The translations under genes and the position numbers were made by a program. From Desulfatiglandales bacterium (GTDB taxonomy: Bacteria > Desulfobacterota > DSM-4660 > Desulfatiglandales > Desulfatiglandaceae), in assembly GCA_963662465.1 (NCBI GenBank), contig OY759599.1, positions 4,928,001-4,992,000 of the forward strand: a stretch of 64,000 bases of DNA. Direction: 5' to 3'. Positions 55,327 to 62,374 of this stretch are shown here, piece after piece (the first letter of the stretch is position 1; the number at the start of each line of letters is the position of its first letter). The notes under the pieces are model-generated. The model was not told where the DNA came from. It ran no database searches and was given only the letters and a program-made list of their open reading frames with translations.

Positions 55327-55943
55327 TTGCGACACGAAGTCGCTTTAAATATATGTTTTCACAGAAGAATCGTGGAAACCCGGTGTTCCGCCACCGGCAT
55401 CCTAGGGAGGCATGCTGCCGTTGCGCTGATGACGGGGTGTGAAGCCCTCCCGACAATGTACCGAGGACCTTTGAAGTTGGAAAGTCGGGACAGAAAGCGT
55501 GAGTGGACTGTTCCTCTGGAAGCCTCATCCGGATTAGGGCTGGGATTGACTGATATGGTCAGTATATTCAAACACCTGCAGTATCGTAAACAGCAACAAG
55601 CCAAAGAGGCCGATAGGCTTGGACCAAACGGTGTGCGGCCAGGTCGGGAGTCTCGAACGTACGCCCGGCGCGGATGTTGTGCCGCCGGTATAGGGGGTGG
55701 ACCTAAGTCAGTTAACAGTATTTATTGCGGAACGTGGTAAGCTCGTAACATCGCCATAAAGTTTTGTGGCAAGCCAACCGTGAGGCAGGCCGTTGGTGTT
55801 GCGGGTGCAAGACGCCTTACCAAGCCAATGCCCTCCTGTAATGGGTGGAATACCGAGTTATCTCCGGCCCGAAAGGGAGCTGAATTTTGGCGGGTGCTCA
55901 TGCGTGAGATAATTTGAAGAACCTTCTGATGGGAGAATAGCAA

Positions 55944-56061
55944 ATGACGGTCTTCGTGACTGGTGCACTTCCACAACAAGCTCCAAACTGGCAACTCATT
56001 AATTGGGATGTCGTCAAGAGTAACGTGAAAAAGGCTTCAAATGCGTATTGCGCAGGCGGTT
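55944..56061 (+). pseudogene. Remnant N-terminus of intron-encoded RT
   Basis: MTVFVTGALPQQAPNWQLINWDVVKSNVK, frameshift, RLQMRIAQAV; the rest is absent before DV. Confidence 0.7.
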
Positions 56062-56178
56062 AACAACCGCCGGACTCTTCTGATGAGAAAGGGTCTTACT
56101 GAGGGCTTGAGCCGTATGCTGGGAAACTCGCGTCTACGGTTCTGAGGGTAATAGCGGCATAATACACACCTCCGTACG

Positions 56179-58266
56179 TTATTGAAAATTAAAGACTTGT
56201 TGTTTTGAGTTTCTTGAAAGCGGGCTCTTTGGAAGCCCGGAATGAGCTGCCTTTTTTATCACTTCAGATTCAAGGTCCTTTTTTGAAATGATCCATGGAG
56301 CACCGGAACATACTCGCTTGGCGGGTAGAATCTCATGTTGTATAAGTCTCCAAACTTTGGTGCTGCCAATACCCAGCCTTTCGCTTGCTTCAGCTACCGT
56401 ATATTCTTCTCGTCGCTGCCTCTCTCCTTCATGATATACAGGGATATTATGCCTATTTCGAAATGAACGCAACCTTACCGGATTCCAGGTATATCCCTTT
56501 GTAGTCTTTGTACCCACACGGTTGAGAAAGGCCACGATGTGTTTATCAGGCATAATTCTAGCCAAATCGGATATTATCTTTTTTGTATCAACATCGGTTT
56601 TCAATGGGTAACTGGAAGACTTATTCTTCAATACCTCCAATTCCGTATGCTCACCCCCTTCCCAGTGAATGATTAATTTGATCTTTTGATCTTCCAAATA
56701 AACAACGATCTCTTTGATAACCGTCCGGATTATACGCTTCTTTAAATCCAAAGAGCAAAACGGATCATTCCATACACGAGGTAAATCTTTTGATAGATCT
56801 CTGATCTCAGTCTCCTCCTCAGGGGAAAGCGAAGGGGTGTTCGATCCCATGGCGTCAACCTCATTCTCCAATCTTGCTACCTTAACAAGAGCGTCATTCC
56901 AATCCTTCTCCAATGTAGATGCTACCAAACGATTATCAGGGTCTACTGCATTGTATTGACGTTTTGCCCGTAAAGCTTCATAACGCGCTTGTTCCAACTC
57001 CAGTTCCCGTTGCCGTTTCACTGAATCCGATTCATGGTTGATTTTCTTTATCGCCTCTAAAGAAGCTTCTAATCCTATCGGTGATAATACTTTCAAAAGA
57101 AAATCCGTAACAGCCCGGTCAACACGAAATCCACCAAATGATATACACGCCTTTCCTGTCTCGGTACCTCGTTTGCGGCTACACTCATAACGTTTATGAG
57201 TTCCATTACGGCCTTGGTATCGTACAATTAACTTTCTGCCGCAATGACCGCATCTTAACAAACCTCCAAGCAATGCCTTTCCTCCGCGAACAGATCCTCT
57301 CACCACCGGCCTTTTCTTATTTGTATTTTGAGTTAGTATCTCCATGTTATACTGGTACTCTTCCCATGTGATGTAACCTTCATGGTGATCCAATATTAAA
57401 ACGTCCCAATCCTTTTGTTCCTTACGAATACCCTTCCTCAGTCGCTTGCGCCCATTTTCAAAAGTTACCTCTGTTTTAGTCCGGCCATAGACGTAGGCGC
57501 CGGCGTAAATTGGGTTGTTCACTATATGCGACAAGGTATGAGCAGACGGTAGTTTCCACTCTATCCTACGTTCCCCTTTACCGCTGGAAACAACAGCAAT
57601 CTCAATCTGTTCATCTAAAAACCAATGATACACCCGACGAAGAGTACCATATTCCTTGAATTTCGTGAATACCAAATCAATGACTTCTTGAATTCGTTTG
57701 TCAGGATTCTTTTTCAGCTTATTATCCCTAGTCTTTATATAGGCTGCCGGTACAGTAAGATATAATTCTCCCCGCTTCGCTTTTTGTTGTATTGCCGCCT
57801 GAGAACGCTCCTTTAATAGGCTCAATTCCATTGCACTCATTTCTCCCTTTAAGCCCAGGAGCAAACGATCATTTGACACGTTTAGGTCATAAACAGCTCC
57901 TTGATCTACAAGAACCGTTTTTTTAAGTGCACAGATCTCAAGCAACGTATGCCACTCTCGACCGTTGCGGGCCAACCTCGATGATTCAATCGAGAAAATA
58001 CCCCCTATTCTTCCTTCACACACAGATGAAAGAAGATTCTGGAATCCTTTTCTGTCAACGCATCCCGATGCAGTTATTCCCAAATCACTATCTATCATCC
58101 ATATGTTTTTCTCGTTCCATCCTAATTCTTTTGCCCTTTCTACCAAGCCATATTGTAAAAGTTGGCTTTCACGATGCTGTAGAACTTGGCCCGGTGTTGA
58201 CTGACGGATATATATACATGCTTCCCGACTAATATGTTCAGCATTGATTTTATTGCTCATGCTCAT
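56179..58266 (-). CDS. Large serine recombinase (resolvase + recombinase + Zn ribbon + C-terminal HTH)
   Basis: YIRQST catalytic Ser, DLGITASG, SRLARN, NPIYAGAYVYG, LLRCGHCG, YTVAEASERLGI HTH. Confidence 0.93.
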   Translation of the reverse strand: MSMSNKINAEHISREACIYIRQSTPGQVLQHRESQLLQYGLVERAKELGWNEKNIWMIDSDLGITASGCVDRKGFQNLLSSVCEGRIGGIFSIESSRLARNGREWHTLLEICALKKTVLVDQGAVYDLNVSNDRLLLGLKGEMSAMELSLLKERSQAAIQQKAKRGELYLTVPAAYIKTRDNKLKKNPDKRIQEVIDLVFTKFKEYGTLRRVYHWFLDEQIEIAVVSSGKGERRIEWKLPSAHTLSHIVNNPIYAGAYVYGRTKTEVTFENGRKRLRKGIRKEQKDWDVLILDHHEGYITWEEYQYNMEILTQNTNKKRPVVRGSVRGGKALLGGLLRCGHCGRKLIVRYQGRNGTHKRYECSRKRGTETGKACISFGGFRVDRAVTDFLLKVLSPIGLEASLEAIKKINHESDSVKRQRELELEQARYEALRAKRQYNAVDPDNRLVASTLEKDWNDALVKVARLENEVDAMGSNTPSLSPEEETEIRDLSKDLPRVWNDPFCSLDLKKRIIRTVIKEIVVYLEDQKIKLIIHWEGGEHTELEVLKNKSSSYPLKTDVDTKKIISDLARIMPDKHIVAFLNRVGTKTTKGYTWNPVRLRSFRNRHNIPVYHEGERQRREEYTVAEASERLGIGSTKVWRLIQHEILPAKRVCSGAPWIISKKDLESEVIKKAAHSGLPKSPLSRNSKQQVFNFQ

Positions 58267-58283
58267 TTCCACCTTTCTTTTCT

Positions 58284-58841
58284 CGAAATGTCAACCGAAA
58301 ATTGACCTCTTGCGACAACCGAATTTTGACCCCCATATGAGTAATTGTAAGCTGCGACGAGGTCATAGAAGGCTCCGGTGGCTCCTGCCGAAATATCCAT
58401 TAAAAGAGCGACCATAACCGCACCTTAGTCAGCTTCCGACCAGATAATCATCTGGTAAGTCGAGAAAACCCTTTTTCGTCGCTAATTCGAGTTCAATCAA
58501 ATACCCTATCTCGCCTTTCATTTTGATCTGTGAAACCATCCACTTCCGTAACCGAATCGTGACGGGGATACGCCTCAGATGTTCAGGACTCCTTTTTCGA
58601 CCAGCGCCTTTTCGACTCCCACCTCTCATTTTCATCGCTCCTTTTCACCTTCAAATTCGTCCAATATTTTTGAATACCGTGTACGTTTTTCAGTTAAACA
58701 CCTATTTCTATCGGAAAATAAGCTATTTATGATTTATCGTTACGATTTTTCTGAGTCGGATTAAGCTGCTTGCTTCAACAACTCCAGTCTCTTGACTGCT
58801 TCCAATATCAGACCGCGATTTTACGTTAGTGAAACTACTTC
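58284..58841. mobile_element. Secondary insertion with an IS21-like terminus, flanked by 8-bp direct repeat
   Basis: TGTCAACCGAAAATTGACC...CAACCGAATTTTGACC tandem end motifs; TCTTTTCT at 58276-58283 and 58842-58849. Confidence 0.5.
58429..58635 (-). CDS. Small basic putative DNA-binding protein
   Basis: RGGSRKGAGRK motif then IPVTIRL (RHH-like strand); AAGGAG RBS. Confidence 0.55.
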   Translation of the reverse strand: MKMRGGSRKGAGRKRSPEHLRRIPVTIRLRKWMVSQIKMKGEIGYLIELELATKKGFLDLPDDYLVGS

Positions 58842-58996
58842 TCTTTTCTATTTCTGTTACCCTCAGAATTTTGCCAGAAACCTGACAGAAGCTCTGCAAG
58901 GAAATCAATCAATCTATTTCGTGTTTCTATTGGAATTTCGATCGGTGATGGTAAATAATCCCAAAGCCGAAGTTGATGATATTTTTGTTTCGTCAT
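58835..58996 (-). CDS. Small hypothetical accessory protein of the recombinase element
   Basis: AAGGAGG RBS; MTKQKYHQLRLW...RLIDFLAELL; lies between the Y4bD-like gene and the recombinase. Confidence 0.6.
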   Translation of the reverse strand: MTKQKYHQLRLWDYLPSPIEIPIETRNRLIDFLAELLSGFWQNSEGNRNRKEK

Positions 58997-59315
58997 CTTT
59001 CCTCCTTGTTTTCGAATTGACTTCATCAGGAGGAAACGGTATTTTTCTATTCACTATTAAGCAATATAAATTCTTAAGCGCCCTGATTTCGATAGCGGGT
59101 TTTGAGCCGAGGGATATCTTTTCATACTTTGGATTGGTCATCCACGCAGGTATCAATTCATGGCGACCATCAGGTTTCTTTGTTACAAAACAAGTTTCTC
59201 CACGATGGTTTCTGGTACCTACCACATAAATTTCTTCACCGGTTCTTGGGTGAAAGGGGTAATATACCCGAGTTATAAACTGGTTTTGATGGGCATTATA
59301 TAGTGGTTCTGAGGG
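58914..59315 (-). CDS. Y4bD/Y4pK (DUF5372)-like protein body; start codon supplied only in the excised circle
   Basis: VYYPFHPRTGEEI...DGRHELIPAWMT; frame runs through the attachment core; no ATG between the core and the conserved YPFHP motif. Confidence 0.7.
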   Translation of the reverse strand, partial: PSEPLYNAHQNQFITRVYYPFHPRTGEEIYVVGTRNHRGETCFVTKKPDGRHELIPAWMTNPKYEKISLGSKPAIEIRALKNLYCLIVNRKIPFPPDEVNSKTRRKDDETKISSTSALGLFTITDRNSNRNTK

Positions 59316-59370
59316 GGCTTGGGGATGGCAACATCCCCTGGCTACCCGGCTTTTCTCAATCAAAAACGGC

Positions 59371-59400
59371 TTGTCTCAAAGCCACCGTCTCAGGTATAAT
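59371..59400 (+). promoter_or_regulatory. Cassette-borne sigma70 promoter for the TA operon
   Basis: TTGTCT-N18-TATAAT. Confidence 0.6.
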
Positions 59401-59441
59401 GAGGGGGTGTTCTTTTACAAATAACTTTGGATGATTAATCG

Positions 59442-59732
59442 ATGAGTATTCAATTTGAATGGGACAAAAATAAAGCGAAAACGAATCTCAAGAAACACAA
59501 AGTTAGTTTTGATGAAGCAAGTACTGTTTTCAGTGACCCATTAGCTTTGATATTTGATGATGAAGAACACTCTACGTCAGAAGAGTTACGTGAAATCATC
59601 ATCGGAAATTCTGAGAAAAGACGACTGTTATTGACCAGTTTCACAGAACGACTAGAAGATATTGTGCGGATAATTAGCTCACGTTTAGCGACAAACCATG
59701 AACGAAAGGATTATGAAGAAAATGCCTACTAA
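59442..59732 (+). CDS. brnT: BrnT family toxin (ribonuclease)
   Basis: FEWDKNKAKTNLKKHKVSFDEASTVFSDP, RIISSRLATNHERKDYE. Confidence 0.92.
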   Translation: MSIQFEWDKNKAKTNLKKHKVSFDEASTVFSDPLALIFDDEEHSTSEELREIIIGNSEKRRLLLTSFTERLEDIVRIISSRLATNHERKDYEENAY

Positions 59733-59985
59733 TTCAGCAATTGACGATTTAAAACCAGAATATAAGTTTGATTATAGTAAAGCACGTCCGAATCGTTTTG
59801 CTAAACGAGTCACTGAGGATAGTGTTATTGTGGTGCTTGACCCTGATGTAGCACAGGTTTTTACTTCTGCGGAGGCAGTCAATGCTGTTTTACGAGCGCT
59901 CATTCAAAACATGCCTAATGTTACTATTCCAGCACAAGTTACAGAGGTTCTCACGGCAAACAAACATCATGGTTCAATCCGCTAA
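59713..59985 (+). CDS. BrnA-like antitoxin
   Basis: LKPEYKFDYSKARPNRFA, VVLDPDVAQVF...VNAVLRAL; overlaps the toxin stop; its TAA lies in the attC R'' box. Confidence 0.85.
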   Translation: MKKMPTNSAIDDLKPEYKFDYSKARPNRFAKRVTEDSVIVVLDPDVAQVFTSAEAVNAVLRALIQNMPNVTIPAQVTEVLTANKHHGSIR

Positions 59986-60673
59986 CCAAGCGCTCCTCGC
60001 GCCGAGGTAAGCCCGAAACCTTGGGAACCCGCGTAAATCGGGATGAAATTGGTTATTGTTATCCAGTGGGTGATCGCGGAAAGCGAAAGTCCCACCCGAG
60101 CAGAGGTTAGCCACCAGCTCGGTAGTGAAGTCCACGTGCAAACCGGGTAACCGGCGTACGGAGCTGGACGGAACGAGAATCCAGGCTGCGTATTGAGCCC
60201 CGAAAAATGTATAGTTGTGGTCATTGGATAACCCTGTGAAATCAGGGGAACGCCGACGCTTTGGAGCAAGCGGAAGACAGCAGACCTTGATGCGCCATGG
60301 CGAGTGTTGAGGTTGCCACCGGGGTCTTAGACCAGGGCATGGATTCAAATGGATAGCTCGGGAACTCGGGAGAACCAAAAGTTTCCTTGTTTAGAGACCC
60401 GGAAGATGAGGGGCGCCGGGAGATTAAGAGCCCTGGCGTTTGCGGGCTGCTTTCACCTGCAAATGAGTCGCAAGAAACACAAAGAAAGAAAGCAGGCAGG
60501 GTATCAGGTGTGGACAGCGAAAAGCGAACGTGCCTGAGAGGGACTTTTGGTAGTCTTAGCGGAACATAGTACCGATGGCGCCGAGGATGGTGCTGGGAAG
60601 GTGGGGAAGTGGCGCCCAAGCGACCCACTGTAGGGAAGGTGAAGCAGGGTATAACGTTTTTCTGATAGGAACT

Positions 60674-62374
60674 ATGGAAGACACTCAGAGGTCACAACCC
60701 ATATCAATGGAAAATCAGGAAATTGCGGAGCAGGTTGCCCAGAAGTCCGAAGAACCGAGTACACATGGTCTCCCCGTACTGGTCAGTGAATCAAGTCTTG
60801 CCCGGGTAGCAATACGGGGGATGGCCGATTCGCAAACGGTGTTCTCATCACTTGCGCATTGGACCGACTTTGATTTATTGAAAAAGTCATTCAAGGCATT
60901 GAGTAAGAATGAGTCAACCGGAGTTGATAGGATAACGGCGAAGGACTATGCTGTCGATCTTAATGAAAACCTCTATAAACTGTACGAACGGCTGCAAAGA
61001 GGGCAGTACGTTGCATCTCCGGTCAAGCGCATATGGGTGGACAAGGAAGGCGGTAAAAAGAGACCGATAGGGATTCCGGCGTTGGAGGACAAGATTGTCC
61101 AGAAAGCGGTGGCGACTTTGCTGGGGCTGGCTTACGAACCCTTGTTTTATGAAGTTTCCCATGGATTTCGGGAAGGTCACAGTCAACACCTGGCGCTGAA
61201 AGAACTTCGTGAAAAGTGTGCCGGTTTGAACATAAACTGGATTTTGAGCGCGGATATTACGGGACTATTTGACAATATAGATCACTCATTATTACGAGAA
61301 ATACTGCGTAAAAGGGTGAATGATGGCGGCATCCTGCGGCTAATCGGCAAGTGGTTGAACGCCGGGGTCGTGGAGGGTGACGAAACCATATACCCTGAGA
61401 AAGGAACGCCTCAAGGCGGGTTATGCAAAGCTTTGCATAACCCGCCTTATGCCAAGTTGCCGATTATGCAAAGTAAACCGCTAAAGCTACCAGATTTCCA
61501 ACACCTTCACTGAGTTTACTTTGCATAATATCACGGGTATCTCAAACTTGAAATCCAATTAAACGATGCAGCATCCTTGGTTTATTTTGGATAAAATGAT
61601 CTGGTTTTTTTCCGACAAATGATTTTGTGAGCTTTTCGCTCAGTCATCATTAGCAAAGATTATGCTAAGTAAATCAAAAAGAAACCCTTGAATTCCAATG
61701 CGTTTTATGGCTTACTTTGCATAATTACTTTCTTTGCATAAGGCGGCGTCATTTCACCGGTGCTGAGTAATATATTTTTGCACGAGGTGCTGGACGGCTG
61801 GTTTGTCAAAGAAGTTGAACCGAGGCTGAAGGGGAAGTGTTTTTTGGTCCGCTTTGCGGATGATTTCATAATCGGGTTTCAATTGAAGTCTGATGCTGAA
61901 CGGTTGATGGCAGTTTTGCCCAAGCGTTTTGAGAAATACAAGCTAAGCCTTCACCCGGGAAAGACCAGATTGATAGCCTTTGGAAGGCCAATGGCCGGTG
62001 CAAAGCGTGAGACCTTTGATTTCTTAGGTTTTACCTACTACTGGGGCAGGTCCTTAAAGGGGCGGTGGGTGATTAAGAAGAAGACGGCTGGTAAGCGTTT
62101 AAGGCGTTTTCTGAGTATGACGTGGAGTTGGTGTAAGGAGAGCCGCCATGATCCCATGAAGGAGCAGCATGAGATTTTATGCAGCAAACTTCGGGGGTTC
62201 TATCAATATTTTGGTGTACGCTCGAACTACAAAGCACTTGAAGTGGCGTATGAATACGCGATGAAGGCCTGGCGTTACTGGCTAAGCCGGAGGAGTTCCG
62301 ACGGCCTGGTGTTGTTTGCAGACCTGCAAAGGAGCCACCCACTGCCAATTCCGAAAATAGTCCACGGATTCTGA
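60674..62374 (+). pseudogene. ltrA: Intron-encoded reverse transcriptase/maturase, interrupted at GTPQGG
   Basis: RPIGIPALEDKIVQ, ADITGLFDNIDH, GTPQGG | VISPVLSNIFLH, RFADD, FDFLGF; no endonuclease domain. Confidence 0.9.
61420..61746. mobile_element. 327-bp non-autonomous element with multiple TTATGCAAAG sites (RIT-like ends)
   Basis: AAGGCGG direct repeat (61413-61419, 61740-61746); 36-bp perfect palindrome 61413-61448; terminal IR CCGCCTTATGC(C/A)AAG. Confidence 0.8.

Follow-up and report, generated by a model that had tools for sequence, protein, structure and literature searches.

A 3.2-kb mobile element in a Desulfatiglandales bacterium, moved by a large serine recombinase, probably carries its attP site within a DUF5372-like gene, such that only the excised circle would rebuild a translatable gene, whose product is predicted to bind the recombinase. 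The element lies on the minus strand at about 56145-59315 of the window, the 64,000-nucleotide stretch of contig OY759599.1 that we analysed, and is one of seven copies in its own genome.

We propose that this multicopy mini-transposon would be driven by its large serine recombinase to insert into other mobile elements at a conserved sequence, in this case the junction of domains 5 and 6 (D5/D6) of group II introns. The attP crossover site would fall within the first six codons of the DUF5372-like gene, and integration would therefore separate the start signals (Shine-Dalgarno sequence, ATG and some five codons), which stay at the right end of the element, from the remainder of the gene, at its left end. 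A translatable gene would be restored only where the two ends meet as attP on the excised circle; there it would directly follow the recombinase gene and probably be translationally coupled to it; the protein would then report “I am a circle” to the recombinase.

An element at the D5/D6 junction of group II introns

The insertion site of the element lies between D5 and D6 of group II introns. The ends are fixed by the seven genome copies, at 97-100% identity, with their flanks, and by three unoccupied sites in the same genome, where intron domains 6 and 5 flank the same core; each of these sites is covered by the Rfam D5-D6 model RF00029. We found a common 10-11-bp core in attL, attR and the three empty sites, as expected of precise insertion with no target duplication. 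The features are as follows, with the basis of each in brackets.

56145..59315, minus strand: mobile element of about 3.17 kb, containing the DUF5372-like gene, two small genes and the large serine recombinase (the copy at genome 6823234-6826406 has exactly the same span and a different flank)
59305..59315, minus strand: attL core, left junction, 11 bp common with attR (sequence, copy flanks, empty sites)
56138..56148, minus strand: attR core, right junction; on the plus strand, the final 5 nt of intron domain 5 and the linker (sequence, copy flanks, empty sites under RF00029)
56169..56173, minus strand: Shine-Dalgarno GGAGG, with an 8-nt spacer to the ATG (sequence)
56158..56160, minus strand: ATG of the split gene, 18 nt past the recombinase stop (sequence)
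56134..56160, minus strand: integrated-state 8-codon frame from that ATG, closed by an intron-derived TAG at 56136-56134 (sequence)
58914..59315, minus strand: DUF5372-like gene body, 133 codons and a stop codon, lacking its own start (Pfam PF17342, motif alignment)
58835..58996, minus strand: small gene 2, 53 aa, ATG at 58996 with AAGGAGG upstream (ORF list, Pfam search)
58429..58635, minus strand: small gene 3, 68 aa (ORF list)
56179..58272, minus strand: large serine recombinase, 697 aa as listed (ORF list, Pfam domains)
55327..56142, plus strand: 5' part, through domain 5, of the ORF-less host group II intron, its 5' limit approximate (RF02012 at 55379-55540)
56109-56142, plus strand: intron domain 5 (read by eye from the sequence)
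59316..59350, plus strand: domain 6 of the same intron, separated from domain 5 by the element (sequence, copy flanks)

Homology of the host intron to other intron copies begins near 55327, and in the empty sites under RF00029 the domain 6 sequence is contiguous with domain 5. Within the element, small gene 2 overlaps the 3' end of the DUF5372-like gene, has no Pfam match and is present in 27 of 30 related loci; small gene 3 lies in a stretch of about 650 bp missing from most relatives and, among the same 30 loci, is found in L023 alone. The recombinase combines a resolvase domain (PF00239, E 7.3e-19, residues 19-169), a recombinase domain (PF07508, E 4.8e-13) followed by a zinc ribbon (PF13408, E 7e-08), and a C-terminal HTH_17 domain; residues 410-478 read as a heptad-like stretch, a possible coiled coil, between two zinc-ribbon segments.

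When attL/attR pairs of the window family were compared by eye, no single position for the crossover dinucleotide fitted every pair. ATG+13/14 and ATG+16/17 each fail for some pairs, and the copy at 6823234 fits neither. None of the 27 occurrences of the 10-mer core in the finished genome joins the right arm to the left arm as attP would. The circle joint was likewise not seen among assembled public contigs over 55950-59500, which are uninformative either way because contigs drop rare forms; loose contig ends over the element correspond to attL, attR and empty intron sites only. Contigs from RNA libraries cover the element and bridge attL, which by itself does not establish transcription.

The DUF5372/recombinase family appears specialised for insertion into conserved sequences of other mobile elements, its targets being intron D5/D6, the GIPT codons of reverse transcriptases and the KG(K/R)VE region of DDE transposases. 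These elements appear to be parasites of parasites.

Start signals and gene body at opposite ends

The initial annotation had described start signals at one end of the element and a gene body at the other, and this observation is correct. On the minus strand the recombinase stop (TAA, 56181-56179) is followed by GGAGG (56173-56169) and an ATG (56160-56158), from which the integrated sequence reads seven further codons before the TAG. At the far end the motif-bearing frame is entered through the same 11-bp core (59315-59305, matching 56148-56138), with no in-frame ATG, GTG or TTG between core and motif. Joining the two ends by script yielded the in-frame open frame of 137 codons that had been predicted; in the window element it is open at every junction tested from ATG+12 to ATG+18, and the shared core makes up its codons 5-9, placing the crossover inside an ORF of the element. 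A promoter consensus scan returned six promoter-like sites where 6.7 were expected; a match at 9 of 12 positions overlaps the Shine-Dalgarno-ATG segment.

These signals recur in the window family. Ribosome-binding site, ATG and frame across the rebuilt attP are present in 13/13 elements, as the split-gene reading had anticipated, and in all 14 related loci where the recombinase 3' end is complete, the stop is followed by 18 nt including GGAGG or AGAGG and then by the ATG. Across 15 right ends, GGAGG or AGAGG is always present and the ATG is invariant. An open frame of at least 100 codons results at junctions ATG+12 to +16 in every one of the 13 elements with both ends, and at ATG+17/+18 in 12 of them. 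Mean identity over 11 distinct sequences was 0.93 for the 18-nt stop-ATG spacer and 1.00 for the ATG, as against a mean of 0.78 for third positions in the last 30 recombinase codons; conservation of the ribosome-binding site and ATG is therefore more than chance. The Shine-Dalgarno sequence and ATG lie about 30 bp or less from the crossover, where the recombinase must bind, and part of their conservation may serve attP function. Codons 2-5 are weakly conserved as peptide.

Rebuilding attP in silico beyond the window family extended the layout to six further DUF5372/recombinase lineages in three phyla-level groups, scored by start signals (Shine-Dalgarno sequence and ATG) that adjoin or overlap the recombinase stop and read into the DUF5372 frame. 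It is present in G181/L063, where restoration of the reverse-transcriptase frame at GIPT/LEDKIVQ fixes the junction; in G045/L062 (7-nt core) and G211/L066 (6-nt core); in five elements with five flanks on Burkholderiales plasmids, one with a 12-nt core and one sharing only GG (2 bp); on the Alloyangia plasmid L069 (5-nt core); and at y4bD of pNGR234a. The exception is G083/L064, a decayed copy with a frameshifted recombinase, which is out of frame at the homology-expected junction and comes into frame only if the junction is placed farther downstream, at a 7-nt word. Short shared words in single-copy elements permit several junctions, in and out of frame, and for these we took the ends from several flanks or from restoration of the host frame, not from automatic short-word matching.

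The distance from ATG to motif is 20, 21, 23 or 26 codons depending on lineage, so indels kept the frame. The ATG overlaps the recombinase stop as ATGA in L062, L063, L066 and L069 and as TGATG in pNGR234a; such stop/start overlap is the usual mark of coupled neighbouring genes. In the Burkholderiales attP, GTGCAxT and ACCGTC are common to both half-sites, but the Shine-Dalgarno sequence and ATG are not, and because they are unmirrored in the other half-site they are not merely a binding site. The gene order, with a DUF5372-like gene first and a serine recombinase of about 690 aa last, is also found in L062, L063, L064 and plasmid records annotated DUF5372 or Y4bD/Y4pK; the middle gene differs, being DUF6788 or an HTH protein in these and the unrelated 53-aa gene in the window.

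The DUF5372-like protein and its predicted site on the recombinase

We judge the first gene, from its sequence motifs, to be a divergent DUF5372. The window protein matches PF17342 at E 5.7e-4 and 20.3 bits, below the cut-off of 25, over positions 2-45 of the 78 in the profile, and a genome-wide search for the DUF5372 family returned no match over cut-off in the bacterium's own genome. In an alignment with three true DUF5372 members over cut-off, however, the HPxHPxxG and P..W(T/M) columns are invariant. The AF2 model of the protein has a mean pLDDT of 68.4, with residues 11-60 above 89. When the PDB was searched with this model, nothing matched at E <= 0.001; Tudor/SH3-like barrels came closest, as a local similarity over 47 columns with E about 0.1, and we drew no functional conclusion from it. 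The product is predicted to be a small SH3/Tudor-like barrel plus a helix, and a putative recombinase binder.

Complex prediction for the protein with the recombinase scored 0.66, against 0.00 for the best of three controls; 116 of 157 solved complexes reach this score, as do 2 of 215 mismatched pairs. Runs had at least 72% contact agreement with a partner pLDDT of at least 59, on our own shallow input alignments of 12 and 16 rows. On the recombinase the predicted interface comprises residues 335-345, 393-406, 480-498 and 508-542, which cover the zinc ribbon, the two strands at the base of the coiled coil and the DBD2 strands that follow; on the partner it comprises the HPxHP motif and helix 67-90, including the family-invariant residues H22, P23, L83 and L86. 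Recombination directionality factors (RDFs) bind their recombinases at DBD2 and the coiled-coil base, as described in one report (PMC11722253). The protein is accordingly modelled as gripping the zinc-ribbon domain and coiled-coil base at the known RDF site, a binding-site prediction that is new here. The initial annotation had imagined a directionality or a replication switch; the first idea gains support from this modelled site, and the second is without support.

The likeness to RDFs of serine integrases, such as gp3 of phiC31 (PMC5814800) and SprB of SPbeta (PMC11722253; see also PMC11795197), consists in a small accessory protein encoded beside the recombinase and predicted to sit on DBD2 and the coiled-coil base. 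No fold relation to a known RDF appeared in the fold search, and no sequence relation was found. Unlike RDFs, which are available in the integrated state, where they are needed, the protein has a gene layout that argues for its absence there, the integrated gene having no start codon. Integration removes the start codon, an impossible arrangement for a cofactor required in excision, and we therefore infer that the protein most likely favours integration or blocks immediate re-excision, unlike the classical factors that promote excision. This direction of action would run against what is known of RDFs. Tentatively, DUF5372 proteins beside large serine recombinases might sense topology and serve as directionality cofactors whose logic is reversed: made from the attP circle alone and in concert with recombinase synthesis, bound at the RDF site, and turning default excision towards integration or delaying re-excision for some time after landing.

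The predicted interface coincides with the RDF site, which would also suit a classical, excision-promoting RDF made from a first rare circle and acting in trans on integrated copies, of which this genome offers seven, to give a positive-feedback burst of excision. We think this unlikely: the first excision would have to happen in the factor's absence, the circle would then go on producing a protein that, under RDF logic (PMC11722253), blocks its own integration, and single-copy plasmid elements show the same layout.

Expression, known systems and significance

From the arrangement of starts and stops, the protein is apparently made only from the excised circle. We consider it improbable that the ribosome-binding site and ATG are kept only as an attP arm or relic while the protein comes from the integrated element by an internal, near-cognate or flank start. 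The Shine-Dalgarno sequence and ATG do lie inside the likely recombinase footprint, and some proteobacterial lineages have weak GTG/TTG start candidates without a Shine-Dalgarno sequence; in Burkholderiales, Alloyangia and pNGR234a, NCBI annotation uses an in-frame GTG/TTG 2 to 16 codons before the motif as the start, and internal initiation is possible in those elements. In the window family, however, no in-frame ATG, GTG or TTG stands between the element end and the invariant HPxHP, the internal start that would have overturned the circle-only reading. Flank starts occur by chance in three of the seven own copies, among them TTG 59363, which had been raised as a possible start and is host sequence absent from the other copies, and they are absent from 4/7 own copies and 10/22 related loci. 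The absence of the signals from the opposite half-site, a frame that survives 3- and 6-codon length changes between lineages, and the ATGA stop overlap in four lineages also count against expression from the integrated form.

For many cluster members gene callers give truncated products of 71 and 85 aa; two members, P0040 (133 aa) and P0038 (131 aa), are candidate circle-form proteins by the approximate length of their N-termini, and they also resemble another insertion flank (L039).

Fusion by read-through of the recombinase stop on the circle, extending the recombinase into the DUF5372 frame, is very improbable: in the window family stop and ATG share a frame, 21 nt apart with no stop between, but in L062, L063, L066, L069 and pNGR234a stop and ATG overlap in different frames (ATGA/TGATG), relatives vary between TAA and TGA as the stop, and a good Shine-Dalgarno sequence precedes the ATG. 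That the gene is a decaying remnant, functionless in either state, would fit a start missing from every integrated copy and a Pfam score below cut-off, but has a negligible chance given a frame open in all 13 family elements at 51-65% identity to the window, motifs invariant among true DUF5372 members in other phyla, and invariant residues within the confidently predicted interface.

A gene rebuilt only on the circle, the reading we favour, is reminiscent of Tn4451 and Tn4453 of Clostridium, moved by TnpX, whose circle reportedly, in work attributed to Lyras and Rood in 2000, forms a promoter driving the recombinase itself. There too a large serine recombinase moves the element and the circular form creates an expression signal across joined ends; here, by contrast, a translation start (Shine-Dalgarno sequence, ATG and five codons) is joined to the body of an accessory gene. 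Pcirc of ICEclc and P3'end of ICEKp1 (PMC13023037) similarly act from one end on a gene at the other only after excision, but are transcriptional signals in elements with tyrosine integrases and drive the integrase, whereas ours is translational, with a serine recombinase and an accessory gene. The SSV-type “suicidal” integrases of archaeal viruses and plasmids, which integration splits and excision restores according to PMC7253208, likewise have the attachment site inside an ORF; there the tyrosine integrase itself is cut mid-gene, whereas here the accessory protein of a serine recombinase is cut within its first six codons. In mycobacteriophage BPs and relatives, with integration-dependent immunity and attP within a regulatory gene (PMC4557955), the gene product also differs between integrated and free states. 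In our element it is the 5' start signals that integration takes away, which should leave the gene silent. In BPs, unlike this, integration is said to remove the 3' end of the repressor, yielding a stable, active form.

Of 72,556 plasmid records, 136 carry the DUF5372 family, as do 6 of the 401 Desulfobacterota genomes sampled; viral contigs held no relative of the element, and phage records no DUF5372 match. Across a spread of 45 plasmid records, 21 have no annotated feature under the match and 7 have no annotation at all; the start missing from the integrated gene accounts for the way automated annotation overlooks or shortens these genes. Literature searches for DUF5372, Y4bD, y4pK and DUF6788 found no papers, and the titles and abstract openings returned for serine recombinase circular intermediates, promoters or excision, or for group II intron insertion, did not contain this layout.

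DUF5372 is thus a widespread accessory family without a described function, whose predicted site lies on the directionality switch of the recombinase. Genome engineering makes wide use of serine integrases, whose directionality is governed by cofactors that are difficult to find. The gene layout ties protein synthesis to element topology; if confirmed, it would provide a natural switch of compact design and perhaps a cofactor for the integration side. Should the reversed-logic reading prove true, the DUF5372-like protein would be the first integration-specific serine-integrase cofactor and a natural one-gene “free versus inserted” sensor.

A gene divided between the ends of an integrated element

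The integrated element (window ~56145-59315, minus strand) places a ribosome-binding site and start codon directly behind its recombinase gene, at the end opposite to the gene body they would serve. The features involved are as follows.

Features of the split gene and its host intron
56181-56179, minus: TAA stop of the recombinase gene
56173-56169, minus: Shine-Dalgarno (SD) sequence GGAGG, 3' of the recombinase stop, 8-nt spacer before the ATG
56160, minus: ATG of the split gene
56136-56134, minus: TAG closing the short integrated-state frame, eight codons from the ATG at 56160
59315-59305 and 56148-56138, minus: 11-bp core, identical at both junctions
55379-55540: 5' part of the host intron, RF02012 match

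All coordinates that the initial annotation gave for the recombinase stop, SD, ATG and TAG were correct on re-reading. At the left end, the frame with the DUF5372-like motif enters through the same 11-bp core as at the right end; the initial annotation had found no ATG between core and motif in this frame, and GTG and TTG are absent as well. Its claim that joining the ends through the core gives an in-frame ORF was reproduced by script, which gave 137 open codons. We confirm the observation, and the in-silico evidence supports its interpretation as a split start.

The element has four genes: a large serine recombinase (697 aa; resolvase, recombinase, zinc-ribbon and C-terminal HTH_17 domains); the DUF5372-like body of 133 codons, with a weak DUF5372 match (E 5.7e-4, 20.3 bits; cut-off 25); a 53-aa gene overlapping the 3' end of this body; and a 68-aa gene whose product has many basic residues. 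The last lies in a ~650-bp stretch between the 53-aa gene and the recombinase (including window 58635-58835 and 58272-58429) that is absent from 29 of 30 related loci and could house a promoter or regulator.

Seven copies of the element, 97-100% identical, occur in the source genome, a single contig of 8.16 Mb; one (genome 3315895-3318746) is split within the recombinase gene by ~2.85 kb of other DNA. Six have like flanks, with an antisense group II intron domain 6 (D6) upstream and an antisense domain 5 (D5), of at least two intron types, downstream. The seventh (genome 6823234-6826406) matches the window over 59317-56145 only, which delimits the element. A 10-mer of the core occurs 27 times genome-wide, as six left junctions (attL), six right junctions (attR), three unoccupied D6-core-D5 sites and 12 occurrences elsewhere; all three empty sites fall under the Rfam D5-D6 model RF00029 (52.6-67.5 bits). 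These flanks, the empty sites and the RF02012 match place the element in antisense orientation inside an ORF-less group II intron, at the boundary of D5 and D6, and the TAG is intron sequence, as initially proposed. In none of the 27 core occurrences in the finished genome do the right and left arms meet, nor was a circle junction found in the assembled contigs of four runs, which drop rare forms.

On the left, the seventh copy is flanked by D6-like sequence from another intron class; on the right, no D5 is recognisable, and attL and attR have no dinucleotide in common at any one position. An aberrant insertion or a subsequent rearrangement may account for this. A relative of the window element (L039:1700-1751) lies outside introns, in a target whose reverse strand resembles the GroES motif ...VKEGDTVLFGK...; this is seemingly an off-target insertion or a secondary site. 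Nearby in the window, a second group II intron (RF02005, 60086-60334) has its reverse-transcriptase gene broken near the PQGG motif by a short insert with inverted-repeat-like ends (61480-61800, plus strand, flanked by ORFs 60575-61513 and 61760-62374). A toxin gene of the BrnT type (PF04365, E 1.2e-24) overlapping a 95-aa ORF, probably its antitoxin (59442-59985, plus strand), directly adjoins the 3' end of the element's host intron. A tyrosine recombinase of 434 aa (PF00589; SAM-like N-terminal domain, PF13495; 53268-54572, minus strand) may be an integron-type integrase.

The split start in relatives and in other lineages

We sampled the window family by protein search (19 relatives) and DNA searches (3 genome and 27 metagenome loci). 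The N-termini of the 19 protein relatives part ways at precisely the point at which the flank of the window element starts. We could place the conserved motif in 26 of 30 loci, and upstream flanks were nearly all intron D6-like, of several types. In every locus with a complete recombinase 3' end (14/14) the stop is followed 18 nt later by the ATG, with GGAGG or AGAGG between the two. Among 11 distinct sequences, mean identity was 0.93 in the stop-ATG spacer and 1.00 in the ATG, with 0.78 at recombinase third codon positions and 0.82 in codons 2-6. In all 13 two-ended elements, joining the ends at ATG+12 to +16 leaves at least 100 codons open, with ribosome-binding site, ATG and frame conserved across the rebuilt circle junction (attP), as an excision-gated gene would require. 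At ATG+17/+18 this falls to 12 of 13, the exception being L032, a relative in which target-side bases supply a stop.

The same end-joining test was run on unrelated DUF5372/recombinase units. In G181 (L063) the element lies within a group II intron reverse-transcriptase gene, and its junction is fixed because the flanks restore the ...RPLGIPT/LEDKIVQ... reading frame; GGAGG stands 6 nt ahead of an ATG that overlaps the stop (ATGA), from which the frame leads through 23 codons to the motif. G045 (L062), antisense in an IS21-type transposase gene, has a 7-nt core, ATGA and 26 codons, and G211 (L066) a 6-nt core, ATGA and 23 codons. Five Burkholderiales plasmid elements have five different flanks, which define both arms; in the three flanks read through, the elements sit antisense in reverse-transcriptase genes at LGIPT codons. 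One has a 12-nt core and another shares GG only, and all five are in frame at 23 codons. An Alloyangia plasmid element (L069), whose ends lack independent definition, has ATGA, a 5-nt core and an in-frame junction, and y4bD of pNGR234a, antisense in a DDE transposase gene, has its ATG overlapping the stop as TGATG, in frame at 21 codons. The in-frame SD-ATG at the recombinase stop, initially described from one element, recurs in the rebuilt attP of six further lineages. The exception is G083 (L064), with a frameshifted recombinase, whose homology-expected junction is out of frame; a 7-nt shared word further on gives an in-frame junction. ATG-to-motif distances of 20, 21, 23 and 26 codons show that length varied while frame was kept. 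ATGA overlaps are the pattern of coupled neighbouring genes; at the extreme end of an integrated element such overlaps have a rationale only when another gene comes next.

These elements (L062, L063, L067-L074) lie repeatedly within conserved coding motifs of other mobile elements: the GIPT codons of group II intron reverse transcriptases, where both orientations occur, and, in transposases, the region of KGKVE (IS21 type) and that of AKGRVER (DDE type, pNGR234a). A Streptomyces plasmid copy adjoins an IS21 istB gene.

Other accounts of the start signals

Both SD and ATG are no more than ~30 bp from the crossover and may be kept by an asymmetric requirement. Symmetry of the binding site does not explain them, since the Burkholderiales attP half-sites mirror GTGCAxT and ACCGTC and leave SD and ATG unmirrored.

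Translation from the integrated form would need a start in the flank or within the body. Four of the seven own copies have no in-frame ATG, GTG or TTG from the nearest upstream stop to the element end, and 10 of 22 related loci have none in the flank; the remainder have chance starts at varying distances, mostly lacking an SD. The TTG at 59363, which the initial annotation named as a possible integrated-state start, is one of these. Gene callers often default to internal methionines, giving 71- or 85-aa products. Across a spread sample of 45 plasmid records, the match falls on no annotated feature in 21, and 7 carry no annotation whatever. For some proteobacterial lineages the NCBI start is a GTG or TTG that lacks an SD and precedes the motif by 5 to 10 codons, and internal initiation may occur there.

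The predicted product and its role

HPxHPxxG and P..W columns are invariant in an alignment of the DUF5372-like protein with three true DUF5372 members (Pfam-model matches in other genomes of the phylum), and we read the split-gene product as a divergent DUF5372 member with a basic C-terminal tail. AF2 gave a confident small beta-barrel (residues 11-60), a helix (74-90) and a disordered tail; no significant PDB neighbour was found for this model, the nearest shapes being Tudor/SH3-like. A complex prediction with the recombinase (single pairing) scored 0.66 (best control 0.00). Of 157 solved complexes 116 score this high, as do 2 of 215 mismatched pairs, counts that are approximate here because our own custom alignments were the input; contact agreement between runs was at least 72% and partner pLDDT at least 59. 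On the recombinase, predicted contacts fall in the zinc ribbon (335-345), in the segments on either side of the coiled coil (393-406 entering it, 480-498 leaving it) and in the next strands (508-542); on its partner they fall in the HPxHP motif and the helix, including four family-invariant residues. On this model the protein would sit on the recombinase's directionality switch.

Tn4451 reportedly has a junction promoter; the window element differs in involving the translation start of a predicted serine-recombinase cofactor. ICEclc Pcirc and ICEKp1 P3'end are related in idea (PMC13023037), SSV-type integrases have their own gene split (PMC7253208) and phage BPs has integration-dependent immunity (PMC4557955); none of these is reported to involve such a start. 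We found no paper in the literature on DUF5372, Y4bD, y4pK or DUF6788.

On the circle the DUF5372-like gene would stand directly behind the recombinase gene, so that both proteins would be made together, and the integrated element would make recombinase alone. A consensus promoter scan gave 6 promoter-like sites against 6.7 expected, one of them a 9-of-12 match over the SD-ATG, and did not single out a promoter for the operon. A classical recombination directionality factor of usual polarity, made from the first circle and triggering sibling copies, would fit the same data and is the less likely reading. A factor required for excision is incompatible with this layout, and we therefore favour a protein that would direct or permit integration, or delay re-excision after landing.
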